64,000 bases of DNA from a virus (lineage: Duplodnaviria; Caudoviricetes). The stretch's first letter is position 1. The number at the start of each line of letters is the position of its first letter. The stretch spans positions 34,756 through 98,755 of IMG/VR virus record IMGVR_UViG_3300031998_000039. The stretch is one strand, 5' to 3'. The notes under the pieces are model-generated. The model ran no database searches, had not been told where the DNA came from, and saw only the letters and a list, made by a program, of their open reading frames with translations. Below, piece after piece: positions 2,343 through 51,195 of this stretch. A program made the position numbers and the translations under genes.

Positions 2343-3248
2343 ATGGCTGAAAATTTGGTTTGGTCTGGTACAAATTATAATGGAATTGATTATAAGCTTG
2401 TTACGGACGGTAATTTAAATGATATATTAATTGATAATGGAGAATATTTTATTATACCTAGTGAACCCGGAATACCAGATATTTATAATAGTGCTATTTA
2501 TAATGGTGGATCTGGTGTTGGTTGGAGAGGTGTAATTATTACAAAAACTCCAATGACTTTTAGACAATACTATTATTGGGGTGGTAGCTGGCGTGAAGAA
2601 ACAAGTTATGTATTTAATTGTACAAGACAAAACAATACAGCATATGAACGTGATAATAGAAATGTAGTTACTGGTTTTAATATATATGAAAATTTTGGTA
2701 TAGGTACGAATGGGACTACTACTTATAGTTATTTACCTCAATTTAATGAAGGTGAAGAGTCTACATTTAGGTCATATGTAAGCACTCCTGTGTCATCTAC
2801 TTATAACTGGGTTTCCGTCTCCACTATAACTGGCAAAAACGGAACGTTCGCACTGTCAACCATAAATAGTTCATACATTAACAATGGCGATCCAGTGACG
2901 GGCGCAACCATAAGCAACTTTGATGCATTAGAAGAAGAAACCAACGTAGGCACACTTGTTAACGACTCGTCTATAGATGAGACAAAGGTTGTTGTCAGAT
3001 ATAATATTCCTCAAGGAACGTATCTATATACAAAGCTGGTATACAAACTAAACTCCGAGCCAGAAACTATTTCGGACGGAGTGGCTATTGACCTTAACCA
3101 AGTAGACTCCCAGTATGTTATAGATAGCATTATTACTGCGGGAACATATTACTTTAAGATATTTACAAACGTTGGCAATAGCAATACTGTAGTGCTTAAT
3201 TATGTCGGCATTGTACCGATTATTATTAATATAGAAAGGGTGTGGTAA
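2343..3248 (+). CDS. Putative virion/tail accessory protein
   Basis: Rich in N/T/Y/S, tail gene context; its C-terminus (YTKLVYK...YYFKIFT) resembles the N-terminus of the next ORF. Confidence 0.55.
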   Translation: MAENLVWSGTNYNGIDYKLVTDGNLNDILIDNGEYFIIPSEPGIPDIYNSAIYNGGSGVGWRGVIITKTPMTFRQYYYWGGSWREETSYVFNCTRQNNTAYERDNRNVVTGFNIYENFGIGTNGTTTYSYLPQFNEGEESTFRSYVSTPVSSTYNWVSVSTITGKNGTFALSTINSSYINNGDPVTGATISNFDALEEETNVGTLVNDSSIDETKVVVRYNIPQGTYLYTKLVYKLNSEPETISDGVAIDLNQVDSQYVIDSIITAGTYYFKIFTNVGNSNTVVLNYVGIVPIIINIERVW

Positions 3249-3249
3249 G

Positions 3250-3756
3250 ATGTCTTCAACTGCAGCGAATGTCAGGGTGACATTTATAGTACCACCCGGA
3301 GATTATGATTATATTAAATTGGTTTATAAGGCAAATGCTGTTCCCGCTTCTTATAATGACGGAACTGCGATTGATATCTTACAATCAGAAACCGAGCATA
3401 TGGTTTATGATCTTAGTGAGGGTATAACATATTACTTCGTAATATTCACATCTAAAGCGGCAAGTACGCCAGTGCCTTATAGAGCAAGCAGTATTATTGT
3501 TTTGCCCGCCGAGCGTATTATTGTTGAAAAACAAGTTGATGAAGAAAGCGAAGAGTTTGTATTAATTGACGATTGGACGTATAAGTGGACGATTAGTGAG
3601 TCAACATCTGTCAATGCGTATGGGTTGGTACTGGAAACTACAGATTCTATTGTAACCGAAACATACGATTATGATATGAGAGAAAATATTGACAATACTG
3701 AAACTAACTTTACCCAAGAGTCAGTTAGTTATGAACAGATTACTGAGGAGGAATAA
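3250..3756 (+). CDS. Putative tail accessory protein, FnIII-like
   Basis: YIKLVYK...LSEGITYYFVIFT resembles an FnIII strand pattern. Confidence 0.5.
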   Translation: MSSTAANVRVTFIVPPGDYDYIKLVYKANAVPASYNDGTAIDILQSETEHMVYDLSEGITYYFVIFTSKAASTPVPYRASSIIVLPAERIIVEKQVDEESEEFVLIDDWTYKWTISESTSVNAYGLVLETTDSIVTETYDYDMRENIDNTETNFTQESVSYEQITEEE

Positions 3757-3759
3757 TAA

Positions 3760-4317
3760 ATGGTTTTAAGTAATTTAAATAAAACGTATAGGGACACTAC
3801 TAATTATACTTTAGCTCCTGTACCGATTTCACATGGAACTGAAGATGTAACCAATTCGTGGATATATCGTGATGCTAATCGTAATAGTTTAGGACTTCAA
3901 AGAAGAAATGGAACTTCTACTAGCAGTTATTATTTTCAATCTTCTGGTGGAAATAATAATGGTGGATTTTATGTAGCTGTTGGATATGGTAATGCATCTG
4001 AAAATGCTGATGATTATAAATTATCTAATATGCAAGGTGTTGATAACGATTTGTTAACACATAAATATGGATATAATAAATGTTTTAGTGGTGATAGCGA
4101 TTATCCTGTTTGGGTTGAAAGCGTTTATGAAAACACGGGAGATACTAATGTAACTGTTAAGGAAATTGGGTTAGTTTATAAACCTAATACATATCAATGG
4201 GATAGTAGTTGGAGTTGGACGCATTGCAACTTCCTTCTTGCCCGTAAGGTGCTTGCCAATCCCGTCACTATCCATCCAAACGAAGTATATAAGTTCATCT
4301 ATAAGTTGAAATTCTAA
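3760..4317 (+). CDS. Putative tail fibre/baseplate-associated protein
   Basis: VAVGYG...VKEIGL...LLARKVL pattern of phage tail-collar/baseplate proteins. Confidence 0.5.
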   Translation: MVLSNLNKTYRDTTNYTLAPVPISHGTEDVTNSWIYRDANRNSLGLQRRNGTSTSSYYFQSSGGNNNGGFYVAVGYGNASENADDYKLSNMQGVDNDLLTHKYGYNKCFSGDSDYPVWVESVYENTGDTNVTVKEIGLVYKPNTYQWDSSWSWTHCNFLLARKVLANPVTIHPNEVYKFIYKLKF

Positions 4318-4470
4318 GGAGATTTATTATGACGTATTTATTACAAGGTAAGGAACTTGGCGTTCCTGTTGCAGAAATCACTGTTGATAAAGCTGAAGAT
4401 ATACAGATATTAGATGACAGGTTTGTACTTAGACCGATAGGCGTAACAGAAGCCGAAGATACAATCAAAA

Positions 4471-4824
4471 TTGTTTCAGAATAAAATAGATAGGGCTAAC
4501 TACCCTATCTATTATTTTATTATAAAGGATGATTCTATGGGCAACCAAATATACTCTAAAGGCACGTTTATTATTGTCGATGTTAAAGATGGTTATATTG
4601 TGGTCAATAAAGACAAACAGTTTAACGAGGGGCATACACATATCTTAAATTTCAAGACAGCCAAGTATTTGATTGATATGGTTATGCACTCTCGCATTCC
4701 ATACCATCTGCCAGATTATTTGCTTATATCTTTGCAACGCTTAAGTGCGGATGAAAAATATAGGGAGAAAATTGGTGAATTACTCGAAAATAAACAGGAA
4801 CATAAACAACGATACGTAAGGTAG
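4471..4824 (+). CDS. Hypothetical protein (likely start ATG 4537)
   Basis: ORF with AAGGA RBS before MGNQIYSK. Confidence 0.6.
   Translation: MFQNKIDRANYPIYYFIIKDDSMGNQIYSKGTFIIVDVKDGYIVVNKDKQFNEGHTHILNFKTAKYLIDMVMHSRIPYHLPDYLLISLQRLSADEKYREKIGELLENKQEHKQRYVR
4485..4518 (+). terminator. Rho-independent terminator
   Basis: AATAGATAGGG/CCCTATCTATT stem followed by T-rich sequence. Confidence 0.6.
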
Positions 4825-5886
4825 GTGAGGCTTATGATAGAGGTTCAACTTAAAGATAGTATGGCAACCATACAAAAGAAACTGAATAAAGGCGGAGAGA
4901 TCCATTTTCAAGCTGGAACTTATAGAATCACACAACAATTGATTATCCCATCTAATACGACAATTTATTTGACAGGAGCAACGCTTCGAAGATGTGCTAA
5001 TATCCAAAGCATTTTTCTGAATAAATGTAAGACAAGCACTAAGGGTTATAAGGGCGCCGGAAACATAAAGATACAGAATGGGACAATAGAAGGAATGGGT
5101 AATTATGGGTATGATAACCTTGTCACATTCTTTCATGGACACGATATCGAGATAGTTGGGGTGACCTTTTTAGACTTTCTATGTCATGCAATAGAACTGA
5201 ATGCCTGTCAGAATGTATTGATTACTGGATGTGCCTTTAAAGGATGTAACACAAAAGAATCGTATAAAGAAGTTATTCAGCTTGACGCAGCTTATACTGT
5301 TGGATTTTGGCTTAATGGAAGTTCAAAGAAATCGAAGTGTTATGATGGGACAATGTGTAATAATATTAGCATAACTAATAATATCTTTACACGGTCTGAT
5401 TATAGAAAACATCCTACGGCATGTATTGGATCGCACACGCAGTTAGTTGGTGGCAGATGTCATACGGATATTAAGATTGTTCAAAATGATTTTACTTGTA
5501 ATGGCGGGAATTGTCTATCCTTGATAGGGATGAAAGACGTTCAGATATTCTCAAACTATTTTAGGGGATGTGCCAGAGCAATTAAAATATGGGAAAAGGA
5601 TGAATCGTATACGTTGACGGGCGAAAAAGTTAAGCCCGAAGTTACTGATGGTGCGGTTGACCATGTGCGAATTATAGACAATGTAGTACAAGACTCTACT
5701 GGTTCTGTAAAATGTTCGGGAGTATATATAGATAATCTCAACGCAACTGTTATAGATATCTATAGCAATAAATTTGAACGAGCGAGTGAATTTGAAAAGT
5801 ATTATCTCTGCGTGGTTAATTGTAAACAACCACCTGATATAGATGTAAAGAATAATCAGAGTCGATTAAGAATAAAAGGATTATAA
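4825..5886 (+). CDS. Right-handed parallel beta-helix protein (pectate-lyase-like/depolymerase-like)
   Basis: GGEIHFQAGTYRI N-terminal motif and repeated I-x-N-N-x-F beta-helix rungs. Confidence 0.75.
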   Translation: MRLMIEVQLKDSMATIQKKLNKGGEIHFQAGTYRITQQLIIPSNTTIYLTGATLRRCANIQSIFLNKCKTSTKGYKGAGNIKIQNGTIEGMGNYGYDNLVTFFHGHDIEIVGVTFLDFLCHAIELNACQNVLITGCAFKGCNTKESYKEVIQLDAAYTVGFWLNGSSKKSKCYDGTMCNNISITNNIFTRSDYRKHPTACIGSHTQLVGGRCHTDIKIVQNDFTCNGGNCLSLIGMKDVQIFSNYFRGCARAIKIWEKDESYTLTGEKVKPEVTDGAVDHVRIIDNVVQDSTGSVKCSGVYIDNLNATVIDIYSNKFERASEFEKYYLCVVNCKQPPDIDVKNNQSRLRIKGL

Positions 5887-13680: not shown

Positions 13681-14112
13681 TCAATCTAAACATAAAAAAT
13701 TATCCATTAAGTATGATTGTAATTCATCAATACTTGTACATATATGTATAGCTGACATTCTCCACCACGGATGAAGAGCAACATTTGGATTAGTTTGTAA
13801 TCCAATAATCGGGATATGTAACTCTTTTGCAAGAGATAATTCAAATGACGTTCCGATACTATTTGGATGATCAAAGTCGCACACTATAAGGTCAGCAGTA
13901 CGAACCTTATATAAATCCCATCGCATCTGCTCTTCCTCAACCTTATCATCAACTTGTGGTGGTATATGTGGACATGGATTAATACACTTCCATCTAACAC
14001 CATCAAAATCATAAGCATCAATCATTTGTGTTATTTTGTAACGCCATCCGTTCATTTCTTCATCTGTTAGTCCGGTAATCGCACCAGCGAGATATATCAG
14101 CTTATATGTCAT
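13681..14112 (-). CDS. Nucleoside 2-deoxyribosyltransferase-like protein
   Basis: IYLAGAI, WR, INP, DL...ADLIV, SIGTSFE. Confidence 0.82.
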   Translation of the reverse strand: MTYKLIYLAGAITGLTDEEMNGWRYKITQMIDAYDFDGVRWKCINPCPHIPPQVDDKVEEEQMRWDLYKVRTADLIVCDFDHPNSIGTSFELSLAKELHIPIIGLQTNPNVALHPWWRMSAIHICTSIDELQSYLMDNFLCLD

Positions 14113-14113
14113 A

Positions 14114-15037
14114 TTATTCTCCTAATACAATTTTCTTTGCCCAGTTCATTGCTTGTGAACTTACTGCCTTGCCAAAGTACTGACTACTAATTACATCTGC
14201 TATCAGTTCGGGTTCTTCTTTGATAACATCATCGTAGATGCGTTTCGGAAGGTTACGGGCTACAACAGCCATATCCTTGGGAGTTATCTGCTCTGGTAAT
14301 AAACCTTCATCTATTTGCTTATTTATATCCTTACGAACTCTTGCTTCGGTGACAACTTCTGCAGCTACCTCTTCAGCATGTGCTTTTTCGAGCAGATGTT
14401 CAGGATCAAGCACTTTCTTCTCATGGTTATGTTGCTTTGTTTCCGAAAAACTATCGTTGATAACTTTAAGATAAAAAGGATTTCTGCAATCAGGATCATT
14501 AAGTTTTGTCATGTTCTTACAAACACAACCTTCGATAGCATTACCATACATAGGCTGATTAAAGAATGACTTAACATGCTCCCATGATACAAATGGGCCG
14601 TCATAATAGGTATGTACATAAATCAGTCCATGTGATTCCGCATACGCTTTAACTTCATCTTGAGGTAGCCACTGTTCTGTATCTTTATCAAATATGTCAT
14701 ATACATACCACTTGTTATATGCATCTTTGTCATATTTAACCGTATGCGGTACTAACCACTCGCCATATAAACAACGATTGCCTAAATCACGGAACTTTTC
14801 TTTATCAAGCGTCTGTACGAAATTCCAAAAACCACGCAAATTGTTAGTCATATTGAGTTCATTCTTACGGCTAAAAGCTTTAAGTTCACCGTCTTCCCAA
14901 GCAATCTGGGCATTACAACCGTCCACTTTTGTCTGGATAACGACTCTATCTCCCACCTCAAACGCTCCAGTATTAGCTGCAACCATTCCGTCTTCACTGT
15001 TCTCTTTAACTCTGACTATATCCATAAAGTGCTTCAT
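14114..15037 (-). CDS. ATP-dependent RNA ligase (Rnl2-like)
   Basis: Motif I KVDGCN, SRK, YGEW, VYDI, EGCVCK, LKVI. Confidence 0.85.
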   Translation of the reverse strand: MKHFMDIVRVKENSEDGMVAANTGAFEVGDRVVIQTKVDGCNAQIAWEDGELKAFSRKNELNMTNNLRGFWNFVQTLDKEKFRDLGNRCLYGEWLVPHTVKYDKDAYNKWYVYDIFDKDTEQWLPQDEVKAYAESHGLIYVHTYYDGPFVSWEHVKSFFNQPMYGNAIEGCVCKNMTKLNDPDCRNPFYLKVINDSFSETKQHNHEKKVLDPEHLLEKAHAEEVAAEVVTEARVRKDINKQIDEGLLPEQITPKDMAVVARNLPKRIYDDVIKEEPELIADVISSQYFGKAVSSQAMNWAKKIVLGE

Positions 15038-15071
15038 GATTTCTTCTCCTGTTCATTTAATTATTATTTTG

Positions 15072-15761
15072 TTATGAGGCTGTTTCCAAAGGTAATAATG
15101 GCAATATATGATCTTGCTCATATATAAATGGTTTAATATCTGTTTTAGTTATATCATTCAAGTAATTTCTTAACCATTCATAATCAGAATTATGTTCTTT
15201 ATAATATGCATCAATTCTTTTATATTTTAAGTTAAAATATTGACATAACCTTTTTAAAGAAGTACGAAAACCATTGTATACAAACATCACATTACTTCTT
15301 TTATTATTTGCTTGCTCATATATATCAACAAAACGACAATTTTCTGGACAATAATTTTTTTCGTTATTTATACGATCGATAGTTAAAGAATTATTATAAC
15401 CATGTTCAAATGCCCAGTTTTCAAACGTTTTATACGATTGCTCCCATTCGGGACATATGTTAATTATATGATTACCTTGGTGATAAACTTTATAACTGTC
15501 AGTATTTGGATTTTTACATCGAGTTTTAATATTTATCCAAATAGCATGTAATCGTTGATTTAATACTTCGTCTTGACACCTACACGGATTGCTGCCACGA
15601 TAATAATGACTGCGCCACATAGTATAATGTTTGTTGCAAAATTTACATTTTACTTCAATCAAAACATTCTTACCCACTCGTTCTATTGATTGAATATATT
15701 GTGCGCCATGCTGATTTTCATTCTTAATTTTACCTCGACTCATTTTTCTCCCGTTCTTCAA
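15072..15761 (-). CDS. HNH-type endonuclease
   Basis: WINIKTRC...ICPEW...LTIDRINNEKNYCPENCRF...QANNKR. Confidence 0.8.
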   Translation of the reverse strand: MKNGRKMSRGKIKNENQHGAQYIQSIERVGKNVLIEVKCKFCNKHYTMWRSHYYRGSNPCRCQDEVLNQRLHAIWINIKTRCKNPNTDSYKVYHQGNHIINICPEWEQSYKTFENWAFEHGYNNSLTIDRINNEKNYCPENCRFVDIYEQANNKRSNVMFVYNGFRTSLKRLCQYFNLKYKRIDAYYKEHNSDYEWLRNYLNDITKTDIKPFIYEQDHILPLLPLETAS

Positions 15762-16182
15762 GATGTTTAATAAGTTTTTCGCAATACCATCGACTCTTTA
15801 AAACGTCTTGTAACCCATTCTTCTTTTTGTAACGACAGATATATTTCAGCACATTAGCTACACAAACCGCTTCAATTCCAGTAAGGTCTTCCGTAAATGC
15901 TTCAATATAATCAATCACTTCCAACCCATTCTTGCTTTTGTAATGCCCGGGATTTACCGCAGGATCTTTGCTTTCATATATAGATTTCTTTGCTAACTTC
16001 TCTGCTCTAATCTTTGCAAGTTCCTCTTTACTCTTTGGATGCTTGCCCTTATAGTTAGGTGAGATTTCTGTCAAATCTGTATCAGGAATAGGATTCTTCA
16101 AAATCTGTCCTGTCAACGAAACAATTTCGTCAGCTTTTGTTACTGTCGGTATAACGGGTGCATAAGGATCAATATGTTCCAT
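15730..16182 (-). CDS. DUF3310-family protein (T7 gp1.7 nucleotide-kinase-like)
   Basis: VNPGHY...EVIDYI...NVLKYICRYKKKNGLQDVLKSRWY. Confidence 0.8.
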   Translation of the reverse strand: MEHIDPYAPVIPTVTKADEIVSLTGQILKNPIPDTDLTEISPNYKGKHPKSKEELAKIRAEKLAKKSIYESKDPAVNPGHYKSKNGLEVIDYIEAFTEDLTGIEAVCVANVLKYICRYKKKNGLQDVLKSRWYCEKLIKHLEEREKNESR

Positions 16183-16709
16183 TTTTTATTCTCCTTTCAA
16201 TATCATTTATTATAACAAGCAGTATGATATATGGACATTTATCCATACATACTTTTTTACCTGCTTTTTGTAAATGATTATAAAACCATAATGCTCCTTT
16301 TTCATTATCAAAAACAGTTACAATCGGTTCTTCATCATGCAAAAAATATTCAGTTACAGTGTAAACACAATCCTTTATTATATTTGTCATTTGTTTACTC
16401 GTTTCTTGCTTTTCAATATTTTTTAAAATTTCACCCATATTTATTCTCCTTTAAATATCATTTATCTTTAAACTTTTCTAATTCTTCTTTAGTAGGTGTT
16501 AATCCTCTTGCAAGCATATTAGAAATTATATTAACTTCTGTGTATTGGTTGCATTCTGGACAACGAATAACATCAATTTTTGTTCGATCCCAATTTATAT
16601 CCATTACATCAAGATAAGTAATATCTTTCTTTATATATCCTATCTCAGCTCCACATTTTTCACAAACAGTAACTTTATAAGCATTACCATGTTTTAATAT
16701 AACAGACAT
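16169..16709 (-). CDS. Two small hypothetical proteins (16169-16438; 16458-16709 with CxxC..CxxC zinc ribbon)
   Basis: Each preceded by TGATATT(T)nRAAGGAGAATAA. Confidence 0.6.
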
Positions 16710-16729
16710 ATTATTCTCCTTTCAAAATA

Positions 16730-16846
16730 TCATTCGGGTAAGGATTTGCACCTTACATAAAACAAAGACTTCACTCCTCACGGCTTGTACCAACCGTTCT
16801 TCTCATGTTGTACACCATTAGCGTCTACCTATTCCGCCACCGAATG
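16730..16846 (-). ncRNA. tRNA-Leu-like RNA #1 without a canonical anticodon arm
   Basis: Acceptor CATTCGG/CCGAATG+A; D arm GCG-GAATAGGTAGA-CGC; T arm GTAAGG-TGCAAAT-CCTTAC; about 60-nt central hairpin region. Confidence 0.8.
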
Positions 16847-16990
16847 AAATTTTGGTTTTATTGGGTTACTTTATGTTTTTCCTAAAGTCATCTTTCATAT
16901 CAACATACAACCAACTAAAAGCACTAATTACTGTAATCAACGTTAATACTTTTAAAAAAATCATCTTTCCTCCTAAAATTATCACATAAA

Positions 16991-17209
16991 TTAAGACCAA
17001 ATATGAGAATTAACTATATCATCAACTGTTAAATTCATTAATTCAATTTGAATATTATCAAGTTCATCAACAATATTTGTATGCCCAGATATTTGAGCAA
17101 GTTCTTTAACAAATTCGATTGTTGTTATAATTGCAGGACGGCAATATGGTTCTATAAATGATGAATGTTCATATTTTTTAACAACTTTTTTTAATTGTTC
17201 TGCTGTCAT
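16991..17209 (-). CDS. Hypothetical protein (start MTAEQL)
   Basis: RBS AGGAGG directly after tRNA-like #2. Confidence 0.6.
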   Translation of the reverse strand: MTAEQLKKVVKKYEHSSFIEPYCRPAIITTIEFVKELAQISGHTNIVDELDNIQIELMNLTVDDIVNSHIWS

Positions 17210-17229
17210 CTTTCCTCCTAAAATGGTTA

Positions 17230-17384
17230 TCATTCGGGTTAGGATTTGCACCTAACATGATATATATACAGGAATATATATCCAGCGATGGAGCTACCAA
17301 TCTTACCTGCGTCTACTATTACTCGTGGACTAAAAGTCTTTTTGCCGAGTTTTACCATAGCCATGTCTATTCCGCCACCGAATG
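17230..17384 (-). ncRNA. tRNA-Leu-like RNA #2 with about 50-nt hairpin insert in the D loop
   Basis: Same acceptor CATTCGG/CCGAATG; T arm GTTAGG-TGCAAAT-CCTAAC (compensatory change versus #1); variable-arm hairpin GATATATAT/ATATATATC. Confidence 0.8.
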
Positions 17385-17403
17385 AAATTTTGGTTTTATG
17401 GGG

Positions 17404-17595
17404 TTATTGTAATAAATCCTTCCGTTTCAAGTTTTCTTCAATCATAACCCACTTATTACCATCAAACTTATATAAATCCCCATATATAGTCAAAATGGAA
17501 TTACAAAGGTTTGTATCAACTCTCGTTCCATTTGTTGCTTTGAGGATTTCTATAAAATCTTCTTTAGGCATTGCCCTTTGTTTGCTAAAATCCAT
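17404..17595 (-). CDS. Hypothetical protein (cassette gene)
   Basis: Bounded by junction motifs. Confidence 0.6.
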   Translation of the reverse strand: MDFSKQRAMPKEDFIEILKATNGTRVDTNLCNSILTIYGDLYKFDGNKWVMIEENLKRKDLLQ

Positions 17596-17622
17596 CTTTC
17601 CTCCTAAAATGGTTATATGGGG

Positions 17623-17973
17623 TTATTTGTCTGTCCATGACTTGAATGCACATATCTTTTCTACTAATCCACTAGTATCTCCATCGAATGTAATGGCTCT
17701 ATCATCAACATAAACAAGGGCAGGTGGTTTTACGTCTGAAATTCTGTCAAATTTAATGTTGTATTTTTCAAGCCATCCTTTCATAGCAATCTTACCCGTA
17801 GGATAGACACTTCTTGTTGATACTATTACAACCTCATAACCTTTTTCACGCAAATTGTCTATAGTTTCTTTAATTCCTTGCACTGGTTCATCAGATATTA
17901 TATCGTGACCTTGCCATCCACTTTTATAACTATGAATCACACCATCAAAATCAAATACGATTGTCTTTTTCAT
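17623..17973 (-). CDS. Cap-less HAD-family phosphatase (PNKP phosphatase/nucleotidase-like)
   Basis: IVFDFDGVI, VSTR, KP, YVDDRA. Confidence 0.8.
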   Translation of the reverse strand: MKKTIVFDFDGVIHSYKSGWQGHDIISDEPVQGIKETIDNLREKGYEVVIVSTRSVYPTGKIAMKGWLEKYNIKFDRISDVKPPALVYVDDRAITFDGDTSGLVEKICAFKSWTDK

Positions 17974-17999
17974 CTTTCTTCTCCTTTGGTTTTATTGGG

Positions 18000-18386
18000 T
18001 TAGCCCTTAAGGTAAAGAGAATAATCGGACATTTCATCAAAACCACATCCGTTATTTGTAGGCTTTATCTCTTTTATTTCTTCATTAAGTTGATTTTCGC
18101 AAAATTCAACCAACCACTTTTTCAAGCCTTTAATTTCATTAGGTTGAAAATATGAAAAACTCCCATCTGGCCTAATATGCTTTATGATACAAGCAAGTAT
18201 TTCTTTTACATTCTCGTCTATCATAATCTTCCCCTCCTAAATGGTTATTTTATGGGGTTACTCAGTATCGCTATCATCTGGACTCCAACCGTTCATTGTA
18301 AATGCCCATGCAACAACAAAAATCCAAAAGAATGCCACAGCAACTATGCCACCTAATGCCAAAAATAATTGTAATACAATATTCAT
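18000..18386 (-). CDS. Two small cassette genes (18000-18224; about 18258-18386, a single-TM membrane peptide)
   Basis: Bounded by junction motifs; strong RBS. Confidence 0.55.
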
Positions 18387-18400
18387 ATTTCCTCCTAAAA

Positions 18401-18466
18401 TGGTTATTGAAAATTTCTGAGGGTGACCGAAGTCAGCCCTCAGTATAAACTTAAAAGGTTTCAATA
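18401..18466 (-). ncRNA. Structured element: 8-bp terminal stem plus ACCA, with internal cUUCGg hairpin
   Basis: TATTGAAA...CTGAGGGCTGAC-TTCG-GTCACCCTCAG...TTTCAATA-ACCA. Confidence 0.6.
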
Positions 18467-18468
18467 CT

Positions 18469-19522
18469 CTAAAATGGTTCTTTTAATTCTGCCTCACATT
18501 TAGGACATATTTTTGGACAATCATCGTATTGATACCAGTAGCCACACTCTGAACAACAGTACCCATAAACATTTTGATTATTAAAAAATCCACCATTTAT
18601 CCAATGTGGTATCCATTTTCCGATTTTTTTATTCTTCTCCGTCATCTTCTACAAACTCCCATGCAATATTCTTGTATAGCCACTGTCTTGACATATCGCA
18701 AGCATCATATCTACTCATACTTTCAATATGGGGTTTAATTGTTCCACTAATCTCCCAACCAATAATAGTTGCAGGAATTGCAGTGCATTGCATAACAATA
18801 AGATATTTGGTTGTTTGAATTACTTCTGCTTCATATACCACTTTACAATGATGTTCTCTGCCATTGATATCATAATCATGCGTATTTAATTCATCACTGG
18901 CGTTAGCATAAAAAAACTTATCCCCAACTTTAACATGAAGCAGTTCGTTAGGTGTCAGTGCTTGCATACGTTTAAAGTCCACATAACAGTTCATTCTTCT
19001 TCTCCTTATTCAGTTTTATTGATACATCCAGCTATAATTGATTTGCACTCTGTTGGATATTTATATTGGAATGTTGACCAAACATATACTTGTTCATCTG
19101 GCTTAATCTCACCGCTTGCATCGTAATACTTATTATGAATACGTGTTATAAAGTGATTCATAACCGGCATATAACAAATGATCCCGCCGAATCTTTCTTC
19201 AAGTATTTTTGCAAACCAATAACAATATCCGAATAAGAAAAGTGTTTTAGCTGAACCAAAACCTTCAATAAATTTTAATATCTCACTCTCAGTCATTTTC
19301 ATTTTCCGCCCTTAATATTTTTAATGCTTCAACTGCATCGAATCGTGTTGTAAATACATACTTATCAAGCATATCGAATTTAAATAGGTGCGCCTGTTTT
19401 GTTTTTTCATCAACCCCAACCGCATAATCTTCGCCAACAGTACGGATAACCAATTCAATTACTTCATAGGTATTACAACTTGGAACTACATCACATAAGA
19501 AAACCCTGTCATCCTTTAACAT
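18469..19522 (-). CDS. Four small hypothetical proteins (18469-18645 zinc ribbon, 18629-18994, 19006-19302, 19289-19522)
   Basis: Coupled ORFs with RBS. Confidence 0.55.
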
Positions 19523-19743
19523 CTTTTTCCTCCCATAATTTATATCGTGTTGCTTTAAAAGAAAAGGCTTTGCAAATTCAACCGAATGTATACAAACAGC
19601 ATTTACAAAGCCTTTTTAATTGTGAGTTTTAAATCATCACTGGATTTGCTGTGAGTGTATCTGGGGGAATATTCATTCCCATCCCGAATAAATAATCTAC
19701 TCCCCATCGTCGTGCTGTGCCTGAGCATGATGTTGTAGGATAA

Positions 19744-19815
19744 CAGAGGCTGAAGGTAACGCTCCTTCTTCGTCTGGTTCAAAGCCAGAAATGTCCACTT
19801 GTCCACTAAGCCCCT
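19744..19815 (-). tRNA. tRNA-Gln(TTG) with atypical T loop
   Basis: AGGGGCT/AGCCTCT+G73; anticodon arm TCTGG-CTTTGAA-CCAGA; T arm GAAGG-AGCGTTA-CCTTC. Confidence 0.8.
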
Positions 19816-19925
19816 ATATTTTATGAGTTGCACATCTAAACCTAATGGTTGTTAGCCAATGAGGAACACACTTCGATAGTTTTTTGAGATTAATTTGCTT
19901 TAAGTTTCGGCGCATTAAGCCGAAA

Positions 19926-19993
19926 TGGACGGAAGAGGAGTCGAACCTCTAACTACTTGACACAAGTTGTTCTTCCAATTGAACTATCCGCCC
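19926..19993 (-). ncRNA. tRNA-like RNA with G3.U70/A73 and truncated anticodon arm
   Basis: GGGCGGA/TCCGTCC+A; D arm GTTC/GAAC; ACTTG-TGT-CAAGT; T arm AGAGG-TTCGACT-CCTCT; 68 nt. Confidence 0.8.
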
Positions 19994-20040
19994 TACCAAA
20001 ACATGGCAAGAAAAGTTTTTGCTTTTACATATTTAGGGGA

Positions 20041-20114
20041 CGATCATGACGGGACTTGAACCCGTGACCTCCAACGTGACAGACTGGCGTTCTAACCAAC
20101 TGAACTACATGACC
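20041..20114 (-). tRNA. tRNA-Asp(GTC)
   Basis: Cloverleaf GGTCATG/CATGATC+G, loop CT-GTC-AC. Confidence 0.92.
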
Positions 20115-20117
20115 AAA

Positions 20118-20190
20118 CGGCTCCAGCAGGACTTGAACCTACGACACCCTGATTAACAGTCAGATGCTCTACCAACTGAGCTATGGAGCC
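20118..20190 (-). tRNA. tRNA-Asn(GTT)
   Basis: Cloverleaf GGCTCCA/TGGAGCC+G, loop CT-GTT-AA. Confidence 0.94.
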
Positions 20191-20257
20191 ATATCTGCTT
20201 CTAACCTTTAATAGGATTAAAAGCAGATTTTAAGAAAGCACATGATATGAAAAATAC

Positions 20258-20328
20258 AGCCTTCAGACGGATTCGAACCGCCATAGCTTGATTACAGGTC
20301 AAGAGTACTACCGTTGTACGATGAAGGC
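20258..20328 (-). tRNA. tRNA-Thr(TGT) with C33
   Basis: GCCTTCA/TGAAGGC+T; CTTGA-CCTGTAA-TCAAG; T loop TTCGAAT. Confidence 0.8.
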
Positions 20329-20381
20329 TTGACCATTACTGGTCATATATCAAAAGAGGTTTCAAATGGGGTATCACGTAA

Positions 20382-20453
20382 TTGCAGAAGCGGGATTCGA
20401 ACCCGCGTCTCAGCCTTATGAGGGCTGCGAGGCATCCACTCCTCTATTCTGCG
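20382..20453 (-). tRNA. tRNA-Met(CAT), initiator-like
   Basis: C1xA72 mismatch, A11-U24, loop CT-CAT-AA. Confidence 0.85.
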
Positions 20454-20604
20454 ATAACGCTCGATCTTAACCAGCCTACATCGAGCATAGGTTTTTTGTA
20501 TGTATTATCGGGGAGGATAGTACATACATGGGAGGGCTTGCTATCCAAACAAGCCAAGCAATAGGTGTCCCCCGTGTCATATTAAACACTCCTATTGCTT
20601 AAAA

Positions 20605-20661
20605 CGGGCGGGCGAGATTTGAACCTCGCCTACATTGCTGTATGGGGATAGTACCACGCCC
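20605..20661 (-). ncRNA. Miniature tRNA-like element
   Basis: GGGCG/CGCCC stem; T-like arm GGCGAG-GTTCAAAT-CTCGCC; no anticodon arm. Confidence 0.55.
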
Positions 20662-20706
20662 TAATGAAAGGAAAACTGTATCATGACAAGACACTATGAA
20701 ATGTCG

Positions 20707-21422
20707 TCAATACTCATCTGTACGCCAATCGAAATTGCGAAATCTTGCTTCAGGATATACAAAATTAATTATTTCTGCATCTGTATAACCGTTACGCTCC
20801 ATTTCTTCAGCCAAAGCTTTACGCCAATGATTATGCATTGGACGATGTATTCCCTCGATTGTAGCTTTTTCACCTTGTTCTTTAACACGTTCAATTATAC
20901 GTTTATCGTTCCAATCACTTAAACGACTTGTGTCAAAAGGAATCTTCTTACGTTTGCAACGTCTATATTCTCTTAAGATATCGTTTAACTGCCATGTTAA
21001 CATATCGGTTTCTTCATAATCTATCCAGCTACCTGATAAATAGGCTTTATAAACCCCATCATGACAGAATGATAAATACGGCACATAAGGATAATAAGGT
21101 ATCAAATCTCTTGGCTCATTCAATTTAATTGGATAATTTCTTTCATCCTTAGTTATGTATAACTGAATTTTATCTATATCATATCTGCCTATCATAACTA
21201 CGCTATCATACAAATCACATTTGCCGCTAAATTGACTCATATCTTTACCTCGTTGGGTATTGTAACCCTTTGATCATCAGCAATACTTGGAAGCAGATGA
21301 AATAGATTCTTCAATGCATTAACTGCAGCTTCTTTTGTTGCCGCTTCAATTTTGTGTCCTTCAGAATCTTCTGCTGTCCAAGGGAATCGCTTGTTATTTG
21401 TTCTATAAGTTTTTATTTCCAT
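20707..21422 (-). CDS. Two hypothetical proteins (20707-21240; 21237-21422)
   Basis: Coupled ORFs downstream of a promoter. Confidence 0.6.
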
Positions 21423-21451
21423 GTTGTTGGTTCCTTAATTTTTATAGTGAT

Positions 21452-21480
21452 ATAATACCATATAACTTTTATTTTGTCAA
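21452..21480 (-). promoter_or_regulatory. SigmaA promoter upstream of the tRNA cluster
   Basis: TTGACA-17 nt-TATTAT with extended -10 TG. Confidence 0.75.
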
Positions 21481-21501
21481 CACATAATTTTTAGATTGAT
21501 G

Positions 21502-24500
21502 CTATTTTTTTAAAACTTTATACTTTTTAATAACATCTTCTGTAACATTATTATCCTGTGTCCAATTATCATTAGCATCTTTACGCCACTTGCCTTCAGG
21601 ATTAATCTCAAGAACTTGCACGACATTCTTTTCAGACACCGGCAACTGCTTGGTTAATGATCCACGGATTCGATATTCAACTGTCTTGCCTGTAGCAATC
21701 TGATACATCTTGTATTTAGATCCTTTTATTTCGGTTACAAAATACCAACTATCTGAAACATTAGGAGCAACTACTGTTGGCATGCCAGTCAATTCAAATG
21801 CATAAATTAATTTATCAATTAAAGATGTTGTGCCTTTCTGGTAAATCTGAGCTTCAATTGATACTAAATCATACCACTTTTTGCGTGTCTTATACTTCTT
21901 GTATAAAGTAAGAATATTTAGCAAATAATTAATGTCACCAAACTCTGAAAAATAATCCAGTTTAACAAGTGATTCTATTTGACGCACGTCAATCTTTAAA
22001 TCTTTAAGGTCAGCCAATAAATCAATAAACTGTGGTTCGCATTTTTCTTCACCCTGATTAAATAGGGTAATATCTCTAACCACATCATAAGGTTTATCAT
22101 ATAAAGATTTTAATGACTCATATGCATCTTTCGACATATATGGAACTTCTGACAATCCTTTATATATTACTCGTTGTTCGGGATCGCAACTATAATCCCA
22201 ATTAGCAAATCTAAATTTAACAGATTCAAATTTGATGCCTAAATCACGAGCAAGCTGCTGTCCATTAAATAAATCATCATCATTCTTGGCACACATTAAG
22301 TATGCAGTACAATATTGTACAGGATAATAGTGTCGATAATATCCGCAAAGATATGACAGTAAGCTGTATCCAAGGGCGTGGTTTTTATTAAACATGTAAG
22401 AACTGGCATCTTCAATAACCTGAAGGAAGTTCTTGGCTTCTTGTTCCGCAACCTCACGAGGCTTATCTGATTTAGAACAATATCCTTCAAGGATTTGTGG
22501 CATTGCTTTTGCTATCTTATCTGCGTCCTTTTTGCCTATAGCACGTCTTATACTATCCGCATCAGAACCACTAAATCCACAAACATACTGTAAGAAAGCG
22601 GTAACCTCTTCTTGATATGAAAGATATCCATAGCTTTCACTCAAAATGTTATTTATTAATTCAGAACCATTATCATTTACTTCATGGTTAAATAATCGTT
22701 CACGATATGACGCACCGCCGGGACGTAACGCAGCATTAACAAGAGTGATATCCTCAATGCTATGACAACCCATTTTCTTAAAACAATCTTTAGCATATTG
22801 AGATTCAAACTGAAAGATTGTAATAGGATTATTATTCATATCATTAAATACATCTTGGTCATTGAAATTTATCTCGTGTGCTTTTGGGAAATATTGTCCT
22901 ATCATTTTACATGTTTTATCAATAACTCCGATAGTTTTAAGTCCAAGGATATCATACTTAATTAATCCTAATGCATGACAATAATCCATATCAAGCGGAA
23001 GAATTTGTTGTCCATCACTGCCTAAAAACATTCCGCAATAATTAATAAGGTTCATAGGACTAGCTACAATTCCTGCAGGATGTTGAGATTGAGAAACTAC
23101 GCAATCTTTAATCCCATCAAAATAATAAAATACTTCAGGATATTTAGCTTTTGTTCCTTCAGGATCAGCTTCGTATTCTGATTTAATATATTCCATTTTC
23201 TCAAGATTATATGGAGAGTCAGGATTCTTAACACATAAAGCTTTGCATATAACGGCAATTGCACTTTTATCAGCTAATGTACCTAAAGCAAGGATATAAG
23301 ATGTACGTTGTTTGCCAAATCGATTAATAATATAATCATATATTTTCCCACGATCATCTTCATACCAATCAGTGTCAATGTCACCTGCTTCTACTCTATG
23401 CTCGTTACAAAATCTTGAAAATATTGTATTCCATTTAATAGGATCAACATCGGTTATATTTGTTATAAATGCTACTACAGAACCCGACACTGAACCTCTT
23501 GAGAATCCAGTTGCAATATGATTTTCTCTTGCCCATGTCATCATTTCAGACATAAACAACATAAATCCAACCATATTAACCTTTTTAAAGACCGCCATTT
23601 CTTCTTTAATTTGGTCTACATATGCTTTGTCATTAGTAATAATCCCTGCGTCACGCTTCTGCTTATAATTACGTTTGATAGTATCCCACATAACTTCTTC
23701 GTCTTTATCACCATAAAGGAATGGATATTTGTCATGTGTATCAAACACTAACTCTTCACAACTGTCCGCCATGACGTTGGTGTTCTCAATCGCTTTCAGA
23801 TACTCCTCCTGTGGGAGGATACCCTGTTCACGAAACTTATCAACCAATTCGTCATAAGTTTTAAATGTCAAGTCACATTCATTCTCTGAATCTCCCCATG
23901 CACCCTCAGTTTTGCCATACTGAAGAATAGTTCGACACTCCGCTTTATACTTATCCAAGCTATGGGTATCGGTGCCGGTAATTAAGGATTTACCAAACCG
24001 CTTGCTTAACTCCCACAGGTACTTGGTATATTCAAGATTGTCAGGGAAGCAGTGGTACTGTATCTCATAGTAATCATAATGTTTAACCATTGCGAGATAT
24101 TTTTGCTTGCGAGCATAAGTATCGCCTTCGTCTGCCAATATTGATTTACGGAACTGCCAAAGTGGACTCTGAATACAAGCAGATATCTTGATAACATTAT
24201 CTGATATTGCAAGAAACTCATCAACTGTAATTCTTGGCTTATAATAAAAGTGATCTTTTTGATATGACAAGAAAAACAACTGATTAATTTCCTCAAAGCC
24301 CTTTTGGTTTTTAGCAATCAGAACTGTATGCCAGTTATCCTTACGCTTTTCTTCAAGGGTTTCAGTAATATAACACTCAATACCATGAAGATATTTTAAC
24401 CCGTATTTATCGCAGAGTTGTTTTTTCTGATACCAGTTAAAACAGTTCCCATGCTCACTAAATCCAAACGTTTTTATGCCAAGTTCGGACGCACGTTTAA

Positions 24501-43574: not shown

Positions 43575-43865
43575 CTCCTTCTGTAAAGGTTGATAAGCTT
43601 TATGCTGTAAGCCGGCGCTTATCTGACCGTTATGCAGCCTTCGCCAATGTTATTCAGAGGTTTATTTAACGATAGCACTGTTTCTACCCATCAAAACTGT
43701 TTAACTACCGTCCGCAGTGCATAGAGTTAGGCTGTACGCCCTATGATGCCTATTTATGGACAAATATAATCCACATTCTCTGTTAACGTAGCCTTTTAAA
43801 AAGGCTTAGGCTAGTCAATAAAGACTTTTACAAATCTCCGCTTCTATAAGTGGTGGGTTATTGAC
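43575..43865 (-). ncRNA. omegaRNA (HEARO-like) scaffold
   Basis: GTCAATAA/TTATTGAC closing stem, GACTAGCCTAAG, CTACGTT and AACATTGGCGAAG motifs directly upstream of iscB. Confidence 0.85.
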
Positions 43866-44628: not shown

Positions 44629-45756
44629 TTATTTGAACACTTCTCTAATCTTAATTAATGTTGCGATAGGCATTTCGGGATCTGACAACTTTGTTCCGTT
44701 AGCCAGTGCCTTAACCTTTGTCTTCTGTTCAGCAGTTGCACCTGTAAACTTCTGCTGAATCTCAGCTAAAATGTCTTCACGAGATTCTTCAGCTTCAGCA
44801 TTCGCTTTGTCTTCTTTAATCTGCTCTGAAGCGGCTTTAGCCTTTTCTTCCTTTGCCTTTTCCTTTACAACCTGAGCTTTTTTGGCATCCTCAAGTTTTA
44901 CACCATCCTTAGATTGTTCCTTAAGGATAGCATCCTCAACAGCTTTAATAAACTCATCCGCATCAAACGGAATCTGATCGATAATGTCAGCAAATCTTGA
45001 CTTGCTATCTACTGAATAAGTATCATCACGGAAGTTGATTACACGACTCTCGCCGGAAACAACATTCTTTGAGATTGTATTTCCATTGATATCTTTCTTA
45101 CCAGTCTCACGCTTAACAATATTTCTGTCAATGTAAGCCATGCCAACGATATCCATCTTCTGCTTAATTGCGTTGAAATATCTCTGAGTTGTGCTTGCAG
45201 TAAGCATTGTGTATGACTCTTCTGTCATTACATCAGTAATATCCGTTCTCTTAATATGAGCAATGATAAATACTGAAACGCCAACCTCTTTTAACTTCCA
45301 AAAGCTGTCAAGCATAAGGTCAATCGCCTTGTCAAGACCTTTGCCGAAACCCCCAAACGCTGAATTGATAGTATCAATCAGTGGTTTCTGCTGAGTTCTT
45401 AACTTCTGGTTCCACATCTTAACCGTCTGCTTTTCAGCCAAATCACAAAGCTGATCGAATGTGTCGATGACAACAACCTTTAAGTCAGGATAATCAGTAA
45501 ACTTATTTTCTGCAATATCATCAATGACTTCCATATACTTTGCCCAAGTATCGCACTTTTCAGACACGATACCTGAGATTGCCTTGTGTCCATCTTCCTT
45601 ACCGATATCCAGTGAAAGATAGCCTTCGTCACCAACTAACTTCTGGCAAATCTGCTTTGCAATAGTTGACTTGCCAATACCAGCTTCACCAAGTAAACAA
45701 ATGTTATAGCTTAATGGATTCAGATCAATCTGAACTTTTTTACCAAACTTTCCCAT
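44629..45756 (-). CDS. AAA_24/Sak4-like ATPase (single-strand annealing)
   Basis: GEAGIGKST, VVIDT, FGKG, IAH, KSRF. Confidence 0.8.
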   Translation of the reverse strand: MGKFGKKVQIDLNPLSYNICLLGEAGIGKSTIAKQICQKLVGDEGYLSLDIGKEDGHKAISGIVSEKCDTWAKYMEVIDDIAENKFTDYPDLKVVVIDTFDQLCDLAEKQTVKMWNQKLRTQQKPLIDTINSAFGGFGKGLDKAIDLMLDSFWKLKEVGVSVFIIAHIKRTDITDVMTEESYTMLTASTTQRYFNAIKQKMDIVGMAYIDRNIVKRETGKKDINGNTISKNVVSGESRVINFRDDTYSVDSKSRFADIIDQIPFDADEFIKAVEDAILKEQSKDGVKLEDAKKAQVVKEKAKEEKAKAASEQIKEDKANAEAEESREDILAEIQQKFTGATAEQKTKVKALANGTKLSDPEMPIATLIKIREVFK

Positions 45757-50187: not shown

Positions 50188-51195
50188 TTAAAACTTAAGC
50201 AATCCACCAATTATTTCTGAAGCCTCTTTGCGTTCCTGATTATCAGTTACAATATATCGTTGTGTTGTAGATACTTCTGAATGTCCAACTGCACGTCTAA
50301 CAAACTCTATATTATGTGTTTTATTATACAAAATTGAACAAAATCCAGCTCTAAGTTTATGAGGAGAAATTGCATATCCCAAAGCTGCTTGAGAATACTT
50401 TTTTATTAAGGCAATGATGGATACAGGAGTGATCCTTTTATTATAATTTCCAATAAACAAGGCTTTATTACTCTTTTCACACATCTTTTCTCTATCAAGC
50501 AACCAGTCATTTAATAATGTTATAACGTCATCTGTAAGATTATATATATGACTTTTGTTTCCCTTATCGATTACAATTAATTGGTTATTATTGATATCTG
50601 TAATATTTATTGAACATAAGGCTGATTCTCTCATTCCTGTAGTCATAAATAAAAGGACTATCAATTTATCTCTTGTTTTAACATGAGACTGGTGCTTCTT
50701 TGCTGTTTCCGAGCCAACGCCTTGATCAATTGCTTTTATAATCTTATTAAAATCAGCTTGTGTTAACATAGGTTTAGTTTGCGTTTCAACTTCTTTATCT
50801 CTTGAACGCGGGCGCTTAATAGTTTTCATATAATTATCAGATATATAATTCATATTTAAAAGATAATCAAAAAAGTTTTTTAATGCAGACCACAAAGCCT
50901 GTTGTGAAGAAACGGCAACAACAACTTCTTCATCGGTGTCTTCGTCATATCTTTTTTTACAATAATTAAAAAATTCTATTGTTTTCCTTTGAGATAACTG
51001 AGATACATCTTTTGGGAATTGATCATACCATAATATCATTTTTCTAATATTGCATAAATAATCAAAACAAGTATGTATTGTCATATCATTAGCTCTTAAA
51101 TTTTCATACCATTCTTTAACATAATCTGGACAATCTAATAATAATTTGTTACATCTTTCTTCCCTTTTTAAATCAATTTCCATTCTGCCTGTCAT
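50188..51195 (-). CDS. XerC/D-like tyrosine recombinase (YopP-like)
   Basis: TGMRES, DKGNK, PHKLR, VGH, TTQRY. Confidence 0.9.
   Translation of the reverse strand: MTGRMEIDLKREERCNKLLLDCPDYVKEWYENLRANDMTIHTCFDYLCNIRKMILWYDQFPKDVSQLSQRKTIEFFNYCKKRYDEDTDEEVVVAVSSQQALWSALKNFFDYLLNMNYISDNYMKTIKRPRSRDKEVETQTKPMLTQADFNKIIKAIDQGVGSETAKKHQSHVKTRDKLIVLLFMTTGMRESALCSINITDINNNQLIVIDKGNKSHIYNLTDDVITLLNDWLLDREKMCEKSNKALFIGNYNKRITPVSIIALIKKYSQAALGYAISPHKLRAGFCSILYNKTHNIEFVRRAVGHSEVSTTQRYIVTDNQERKEASEIIGGLLKF

Follow-up and report, generated by a model that had tools for sequence, protein, structure and literature searches.

The stretch of DNA analysed here, referred to as the window, comprises 64,000 nucleotides (bases 34756-98755) of the 98,755-bp IMG/VR virus record IMGVR_UViG_3300031998_000039, a member of the Caudoviricetes with a CheckV completeness of 64%. 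On its minus strand lies an array of small genes whose units are separated by a short repeat, here called the junction. The repeat is strand-specific and conserved across a clade of related phages, and homology between these phages breaks off inside it. We consider it probable that the junction is a shared splice point, which would act as an adaptor for expression and also offer the homology through which cassettes are swapped by homologous recombination. The genome holding the window is designated G000, and its junction-carrying relatives G001-G014, together with L-numbered contigs or stretches. All relatives compared are metagenome contigs, and certain combinations of flanks come from one assembly only. 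Eight public runs, all stored as contigs, contain the window wholly or partly, seven of them labelled as bovine gut metagenome and one bearing a coded organism label. Nearly the whole window is present in two of the eight, both from one sample, and none is recorded as RNA. A megablast of positions 14000-22000 against 50,697 GenBank phages gave no match.

All genes from ~14 to 21 kb of the window are on the minus strand. Read in that direction from 18645 to 16458, they begin with an open reading frame (ORF) for a 58-amino-acid (aa) zinc-ribbon protein and a terminator-like hairpin, followed by small ORFs of 42, 74, 116, 63, 72 and 32 aa. Two tRNA-like elements (116-154 nt) are intercalated among these six unrelated ORFs. 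The cassettes are co-oriented, with one repeat per unit. When the array ORFs were compared with each other by blastp, no pair had an E value below 0.1; the genes are thus non-paralogous, and the repeat is not the residue of a tandem gene duplication.

The non-coding unit heading the array is the terminator-like hairpin element (18406-18471), read from the sequence as a GC stem (18417-18443) with a UUCG loop and flanked on both sides by copies of AACCATTTTAG. It folds at -20.4 kcal/mol (z = -3.9), and homologues follow the short form of the junction in G001, G004 and G012. The junction span that holds it (18384-18471) was absent from the first-pass annotation, an earlier description of the window made from its letters alone. 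A junction 3' half (ATAACCATTTTAGGAGG...ATG, 18384-18408) leads into cassette 1 (18258-18386), a 42-aa predicted membrane peptide gene without a Pfam match. Junction J1 (18222-18260), identified by motif scan and alignment, has the long form, TAACCCCATAAAATAACCA with a Shine-Dalgarno (SD) sequence and ATG. It precedes cassette 2 (18000-18224), a 74-aa gene. At J2 (17971-18002, motif scan) the short form is joined straight to the SD. Cassette 3 (17623-17973) encodes a 116-aa HAD-like phosphatase, with Pfam HAD families slightly under the cut-off and a match to phrog_1238 (2.6e-18); a homologue on L269 has a junction after it. An association of the junction with this gene was considered and rejected, as relatives detected by way of the HAD-like protein (56-58% identity) are without the motif; the junction goes with the clade and not with the HAD-like gene.

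The 'empty' junction J3 (17593-17625, motif scan) separates cassette 3 from cassette 4 (17404-17595), a 63-aa gene without a Pfam or PHROG family match. Next is a 'filled' junction, J4, made up of a 5' half in the short form (TAACCCCATAAAACCAAAATTT, 17385-17406, motif scan) as found before RNA cassettes, the 154-nt tRNA-like element A (17231-17384), and a 3' half (ATAACCATTTTAGGAGGAAAGATG, 17207-17230). The 72-aa gene of cassette 5 (16991-17209) ends at J5 (16962-16993), a degenerate junction that retains TTTTAGGAGGAAAGATG only. J5 is likewise missing from the first-pass annotation. Cassette 6 (16866-16964) is an ORF for a 32-aa predicted membrane peptide. After it, the short-form 5' half of J6 (16847-16868, motif scan) leads into the 116-nt tRNA-like element B (16731-16846), which fills a second 'filled' junction (16707-16868). 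All of these features are on the minus strand. Outside the window, G000 has on its plus strand one more long-form junction (genome 17329-17365) and a short-form junction followed by a third tRNA-like element (genome 17693-17835).

The repeat was quantified by scanning the window with TAACCCMATAWAACCA, allowing up to two mismatches. Five matches were found (16853, 17391, 17610, 17987 and 18245), all on the minus strand and within 1.4 kb. Shuffled sequence gave a mean of 0.27, and five matches were reached in 0 of 100 shuffles. A second pattern, AACCATTTTAGGAGG, matched three times against 0.20 expected. The TAA of every one of the five copies is the stop codon of a minus-strand ORF (16866-16964, 17404-17595, 17623-17973, 18000-18224 and 18258-18386). 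The first-pass annotation had noted five small genes ending in TAA plus a common motif, and the scan confirmed this against the 0.27 expected; its 'empty' junction at 17593-17625 and 'filled' junction at 17207-17406 both read as described there.

Alignment of 34 non-redundant junctions revealed an invariant core, (G)TAACCC[C/A]ATAAAA, and two forms. The long form, TAACCATTTTAGGAGG followed by 4-6 nt and ATG, contains a G-free spacer and a consensus SD, and stood before ORFs in 19 cases. The short form, CCAAAATTT, stood before non-coding units in nine of nine cases, the units being a tRNA-like RNA, a mini hairpin derivative or a terminator hairpin. The stretch from the TAA to the SD lacks G; its TAA triplets cover two reading frames in the short form and three in the long form. 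ORFs that end in the motif use two frames, xxG-TAA or GTA-ACC-CCA-TAA, the latter giving ...VTP*. The motif also follows an RNA in G001, without any ORF upstream. The two stop frames and the copy after an RNA indicate that the motif acts as a signal at the level of the nucleic acid and does not belong to a conserved peptide. At the copy at genome 17700-17704 in G000, the upstream ORF passes the first triplets and ends at the second TAA of the motif (ACC-CCA-TAA). Several unrelated small proteins of G001, G004, G010, G014 and G000 end in ..VTP, ..ATP, ..VTQ or ..ETQ solely by reading through the core to this second stop.

In a scan whose promoter models covered only sigma-70-type signals, neither such a promoter nor an intrinsic terminator was predicted at any junction. 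The junction folds at -4.9 kcal/mol (z = -0.47), no better than shuffles, and contains no inverted repeat. A hairpin presenting the SD in its loop (CCAUUUU paired with AAGAUGG) was rejected for the same reason, being no better than shuffles. Rfam searches, both at the gathering threshold and at E values up to 10, assigned neither the junction nor the hairpin nor any tRNA-like element to a family. Two variants were seen among the relatives. The 126-nt gap between ORFs 2058-2264 and 1719-1931 of G002 (L204, minus strand) contains an eight-codon mini-ORF (MIIGFITQ) that has its own ribosome site and ends in a junction copy. At L258:7388-7430, a mutated junction is without a stop, and the MIIGFITQ mini-ORF is fused to the next gene.

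The tRNA-like elements have a 7-bp acceptor stem, a Leu-type D arm and a 6-bp T stem with a UGCAAAU loop. Their interiors are unrelated and have no anticodon arm, and they were not called by ARAGORN. The T stem shows a compensatory change between copies A and B. Element A has a Leu-type acceptor and carries its insert within the D loop. Element B and the third copy (genome 17712-17833, plus strand) are 99% identical over the first 80 nt compared, with unrelated upstream flanks. An exact 16-mer from the 5' end of the element matched 50 viral contigs, ~30 of which have the same two ends around different interiors. Among the family members, acceptor positions 1-2 covary with positions 71-72. Unrelated phages bearing such elements are without the junction motif, and the tRNA-like RNA is here one type of junction cargo.

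Further members and derivatives of this family were observed. Dozens of contigs from four bovine runs match element B at its two ends alone (16725-16760 and 16817-16847), skipping 56-63 nt in between, which shows that many family members with other interiors share those samples. A short unit in G009 (L247, minus strand; ~125 nt between ORFs 3668-3976 and 3232-3543) shares the first 13 nt of the elements (CATTCGGTGGCGG) and continues with one long ~15-bp hairpin in place of a tRNA fold. The same CATTCGGTGGCGG-plus-hairpin unit lies directly downstream of ORF 4230-5585 in G011 (L249, minus strand), and the version in G005 ends after the 13 nt. This unit is either a deletion derivative of the tRNA-like element or a separate hairpin RNA in the same slot.

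According to pattern scans, at least 17 further viral contigs (G001-G014, L256, L258 and L259) carry the junction, as do ~27 metagenome stretches, some of which are those same contigs. A scan of viral contigs with a degenerate 16-mer gave mostly single chance matches, and longer patterns were used for counting carriers. The carriers range from 43 kb to about 150 kb and have 1-7 copies per genome. All copies were on the coding strand in 15 genomes, and a reversed control pattern gave 0 matches. When G000 was compared with five relatives by blastn, identities of 97-100% were confined to six junction or leader segments (31-37 nt) and one 40-nt segment elsewhere, and matches in coding DNA were 63-89% identical. 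Over the relatives at large, 31-37 nt of the junction frequently agreed without a mismatch (100% identity), against about 62-89% in coding DNA. A scan of 185,579 species genomes gave one match only, on a 5.6-kb contig of a metagenome-assembled genome labelled uncultured archaeon; no ribosome site follows the motif there, the match was treated as chance, and the scan pointed to no host. The junction is thus specific to a single clade of phages from the bovine rumen.

In the relatives, the junction follows a large, highly mosaic ORF and precedes the lysis genes, bounding 0-4 small genes that differ among phages. The lysis genes were confirmed in G007 as a holin (phrog_881) and an endolysin. The large ORF has no Pfam or PHROG match; judging by its position, it could encode a tail fibre or receptor-binding protein. 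A conserved in-frame island of ~68 nt within it encodes ..(Y/P)HKTTDLSESLGQTVY.. and lies 0.5-1.1 kb before the junction. In G000 this island is at genome 16495-16560 (L005:1489-1554), outside the window, and happens to hold the junction core ACCCCATAAAACCA. It is also present in L244, L247, L248, L249, L258, L259, L261, L263, L267, L271, L274, L276, L277, L280 and L286, with a mean pairwise identity of 85% over 17 genes. Its flanks fall into 16 N-terminal and 14 C-terminal clusters with some shuffling, one C type occurring with three N types. The arrangement suggests a variable C-terminal domain bracketed by the island and the junction, which, as a guess from position, may resemble a swappable receptor-binding module.

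Exchange at the junction was assessed by anchored alignments and local-score clustering, which replaced a first measure of flank identity that had a noisy null (95th percentile 0.72). In anchored pairs, one flank was typically 90-100% identical up to the motif, and the other was at chance level. A 69-aa gene is 97% identical between G005 and G006 up to the TAA, and the downstream sequence 24%. The end of the upstream ORF is 93% identical between G009 and G011, and the downstream unit 15%. Changes on the other side of the motif were found as well: the holin genes of G010 and G014 are 99% identical with upstream sequence at 31%, and two copies of a 54-aa gene in G001 are 99% identical, again with 31% upstream. 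These two copies (99-100% identical) are at both ends of the 43-kb contig of G001 (L201:579-774 and L202:6071-6266), at one end after the large ORF and at the other after a tRNA-like RNA. They reflect either a true duplication or an assembly in which two variants of the slot from the population were merged.

The 62 non-redundant junctions had flanks in 46 upstream and 49 downstream clusters, which occurred in 60 combinations. Ten upstream flanks had 2-4 different downstream partners, and nine downstream flanks had 2-3 different upstream partners. One end of the large ORF leads into three different genes (G007, L291 and L294). Junction pairs homologous on both sides came essentially from near-identical genomes (G007/G008 and G013/G014). 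Insertions or deletions of whole units exactly between two junction copies were found three times (+314, +378 and +668 nt; the 314 nt are extra in L258 relative to G007), each time a gene placed between two genes that are adjacent in the relative. The 74-aa gene of cassette 2 (18000-18224) is in the window array in G000, and its homologues in G007, G009 and L258 are in the slot before the lysis genes, bounded by junctions throughout. In G000 it lies ~35 kb from the slot matching that of G007, and on the other strand. The switching of flank partners and the three whole-unit events bear out the suggestion of the first-pass annotation that unrelated genes and structured RNAs are swapped as units.

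Identity from the shared side extends 3, 5, 6, 10, 13, 14, 19, 22, 24, 28 or 38 nt into the junction, and identity from the other side extends back through 5-21 nt. The commonest value was 13, where the long and short forms part. The brackets are spread over 3-38 nt, so there is no single crossover position, as expected if crossing-over takes place anywhere within a homologous patch. The first-pass annotation had proposed breakpoints at the motif as its test, to be refuted by a fixed gene order or by breaks elsewhere. The comparison passes this test: gene order is not fixed, and the breaks are inside the motif. The brackets do not converge on a fixed point. A 1375-nt contig (X6) that holds 17228-17405, with element A, has unlike sequence past both junction halves and is suggestive only as a further case of exchange. 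Joints with sides shorter than 30 nt (17405>17595 in X6 and 16872>18382 in X3) probably come from other phages sharing the repeat and were not counted.

If the junction is a shared splice point, its 5' half would end whichever ORF enters it, and the 3' half of the long form would start translation of the next ORF through an SD at optimal distance. Stop codons, an unstructured G-free spacer and the SD would together make up an adaptor, by which an inserted ORF would be translated from the resident transcript. This translational role, which we infer from the order of the signals, would let the resident operon express small accessory genes and RNAs that bring no signals themselves. The repeat, 19-37 nt long, in direct orientation within a genome and common to co-infecting phages, would at the same time present a patch of homology. 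Homologous recombination or single-strand annealing in this patch would lead to deletion, insertion, replacement or relocation of whole units, and frequent exchange would homogenise the copies and keep them near-identical. Crossing-over anywhere in the identical 19-37-nt patch accords with every observation made here.

The proteins acting on the patch would presumably be host RecA or phage annealing proteins, for example of the AAA_24/Sak4-like type. G000 has an AAA_24 (Sak4-like) gene at 44992-45708 (genome 79747-80463, minus strand; 79 bits), a possible single-strand-annealing helper, which passes the cut-off in G000 and G009, two of the five genomes tested. Sak4-type annealing had been proposed as one of two candidate catalysts. 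Homology-driven exchange does fit better than an integron, and the gene is present in these two genomes; its link to the junction is one that we only infer. Several points weigh against the splice-point reading as a whole. AAA_24, the sole annealing-protein family tested, is over the cut-off in only two of the five genomes. The evidence consists of contig breakpoints in metagenome contigs, some of the combinations from a single assembly, and not of recombination events observed directly. A repeat of 19-37 nt is short for RecA-type exchange. Translation alone leaves unexplained both the 5' half before non-coding units and the 100% identity, and a trans-acting factor may be involved.

Such a factor is central to an explanation that puts regulation first, which we regard as rather unlikely but worth weighing. 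The motif would mainly be the site of a trans-acting factor. It might be a promoter that lacks a -35 element and is read by a sigma factor of the phage or an alternative one of the host, or else the place where an RNA-binding protein binds, or an RNase cuts, the polycistronic mRNA during its processing; a binding or cleavage site of this kind had been named as an alternative in the first-pass annotation. Mosaic borders would then coincide with it, to the same tentative degree, because selection retains those recombinants that keep the signal. Identity of 100% over 31-37 nt across diverged phages exceeds what an unstructured spacer needs, the 5' half is retained before RNA units that need no ribosome site, and the motif is strictly strand-specific, all of which such a factor would account for. 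The long form also contains CATAAAATA, which may resemble a sigma-K-type -10 element. The start-associated sequences of cluster K phages likewise are clade-specific start-site motifs whose factor is unknown (PMC3203893). However, no sigma-70-like promoter was predicted at any junction, and with 1-7 copies per genome and downstream genes that vary among phages there is no stable regulon. A helix-turn-helix (HTH) regulator lies beside the lysis genes in G002, G004, G005 and G007 but was not found in G000, G001 and G003. Among the candidates looked at, no trans-acting factor common to all carriers was found, the HTH late regulator, AAA_24 and PF00589 all being patchy. Illegitimate recombination followed by selection, moreover, would not restore an intact and identical junction at each new joint.

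Integron-like site-specific recombination, with a dedicated recombinase acting at a fixed crossover such as AACCA, was among the mechanisms put forward in the first-pass annotation, and we now judge it quite improbable. The arrays are co-oriented, with one repeat per unit and cassettes without a promoter of their own, AACCA is present on either side of the 'filled' sites, and five pairs sharing their left side all switch after position 13. G000 also encodes two tyrosine recombinases. The one named as candidate catalyst (PF00589 by Pfam, 50188-51195, minus strand) is the nearest PF00589 gene to the array, yet it lies 32 kb away, and no evidence links it to the junction. The motif has neither an inverted repeat nor an attC-like fold, and the brackets of exchange are scattered over 3-38 nt. 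Neither PF00589 nor PF00239 is matched in G001 or G009, two carriers of junction-bounded cassettes whose genomes are rated 100% complete. Tyrosine recombinases were found in G000 (two), G005 and G007, and serine recombinases in none of the five genomes. A related idea, which we rate as improbable, is that the phages encode a capture machinery of their own (a nuclease, a recombinase or an RNA-guided enzyme), which would recognise the junction and actively fill fixed slots with ORFs, tRNA-like RNAs and receptor-binding domains. If true, this machinery would be the equivalent in phages of an integron, working on a site that is not palindromic.

It is very improbable that the pattern is an artefact, in which chimeric assemblies mis-join phages at a short shared repeat or the matches arise by chance. 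The relatives are indeed all metagenome contigs, the repeats interrupt the Logan contigs assembled from the source sample, and the G001 contig has the 54-aa gene at both ends in two contexts. The repeat, however, is at most 37 nt long, shorter than a read, and is spanned by single reads. The same combinations recur in different metagenomes (G007/G008, G013/G014, L263/L293, L292/L295 and L256/L276). A single contig covers six junctions of the window array, and two of these are also bridged by Logan contigs from a different sample (X5, 16828-17396). Chance would give 0.27 copies in place of the five observed.

Two further RNA features were noted on the minus strand of the window. Rfam gave a fifth tRNA match at 19926-19993 (51.5 bits), uncalled by ARAGORN, which adjoins the Asp, Asn, Thr and Met tRNA genes at 20038-20454. 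A full-length HEARO RNA (RF02033, the omega-RNA of IscB-type nucleases) is at 43629-43865 (122 bits, E = 1e-24).

Among known repeats, the junction as a shared splice point is probably best described as similar to two kinds and as a variant on them. One is the promoter early stem-loop (PeSL) of T4-type phages, which mediates shuffling by an exchange attributed to homologous recombination between repeats (PMC2839356, PMC4122927). Like the PeSL (Arbiol et al. 2010, Comeau et al. 2014), the junction is a short conserved sequence that recurs among the small non-essential ORFs of variable regions, and related phages differ by insertions, deletions and replacements whose ends lie in the repeats. The logic of homologous exchange from repeat to repeat is that shown experimentally for PeSLs in T4-type phages, where mini-circles arise when neighbouring PeSLs recombine. 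The PeSL is a sigma-70-type early promoter with a terminator stem-loop, whereas the junction has neither and consists of a stop codon, a G-free spacer and an SD. Unlike the PeSL, it belongs to phages of an SD-using host in the cattle rumen, whose genomes span 43 kb to about 150 kb, and structured-RNA units are among those that it delimits.

The other kind is the start-associated sequence (SAS/ESAS) of cluster K mycobacteriophages, a 13-bp sequence (GGGATAGGAGCCC) of unknown function (Pope et al. 2011, PMC3203893). Both SAS and junction are asymmetric, single-orientation and clade-restricted, with an SD core a few bases before the starts of unrelated gene families. Both at times have the upstream stop inside the repeat, and both are missing from the bacterial genomes searched. 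The SAS is found in Mycobacterium phages and has 13 bp; the junction has ~35 nt of other sequence and belongs to another phage group. SAS have not been reported as recombination breakpoints, whereas breakpoints are the main evidence for the junction. With the attC/attI sites of integrons, the junction shares co-oriented, promoterless single-gene units with one repeat each. It differs in that no integrase lies beside the array, the imperfect inverted repeat that would form a hairpin is missing and the crossover is not fixed, and some carriers are without a site-specific recombinase.

Morons are extra genes between two genes that are adjacent in a relative, and the classical ones bring their own promoter and terminator. 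The three whole-unit cases described here are moron-like in their placement; unlike morons, the units appear to bring the junction only. Most phage mosaicism is ascribed to random illegitimate joints filtered by selection. The linker or boundary-sequence idea of modular phage evolution holds that conserved sequences lie at module borders. To our knowledge, there are few clear cases of a conserved gene-boundary sequence directing exchange, the PeSLs being the main one. As a shared splice point, the junction would be a second and mechanistically different case. It would be an expression adaptor instead of a promoter-terminator pair, and the units between its copies include protein genes as well as anticodon-less tRNA-like RNAs and terminator hairpins. 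The junction also forms the 3' border of the variable C-terminal part of the large ORF upstream of the lysis genes, probably a receptor-binding protein. It could act as a natural 'landing pad' when phages of Gram-positive-type hosts are engineered, and it may aid the swapping of host-range modules in the rumen virome.

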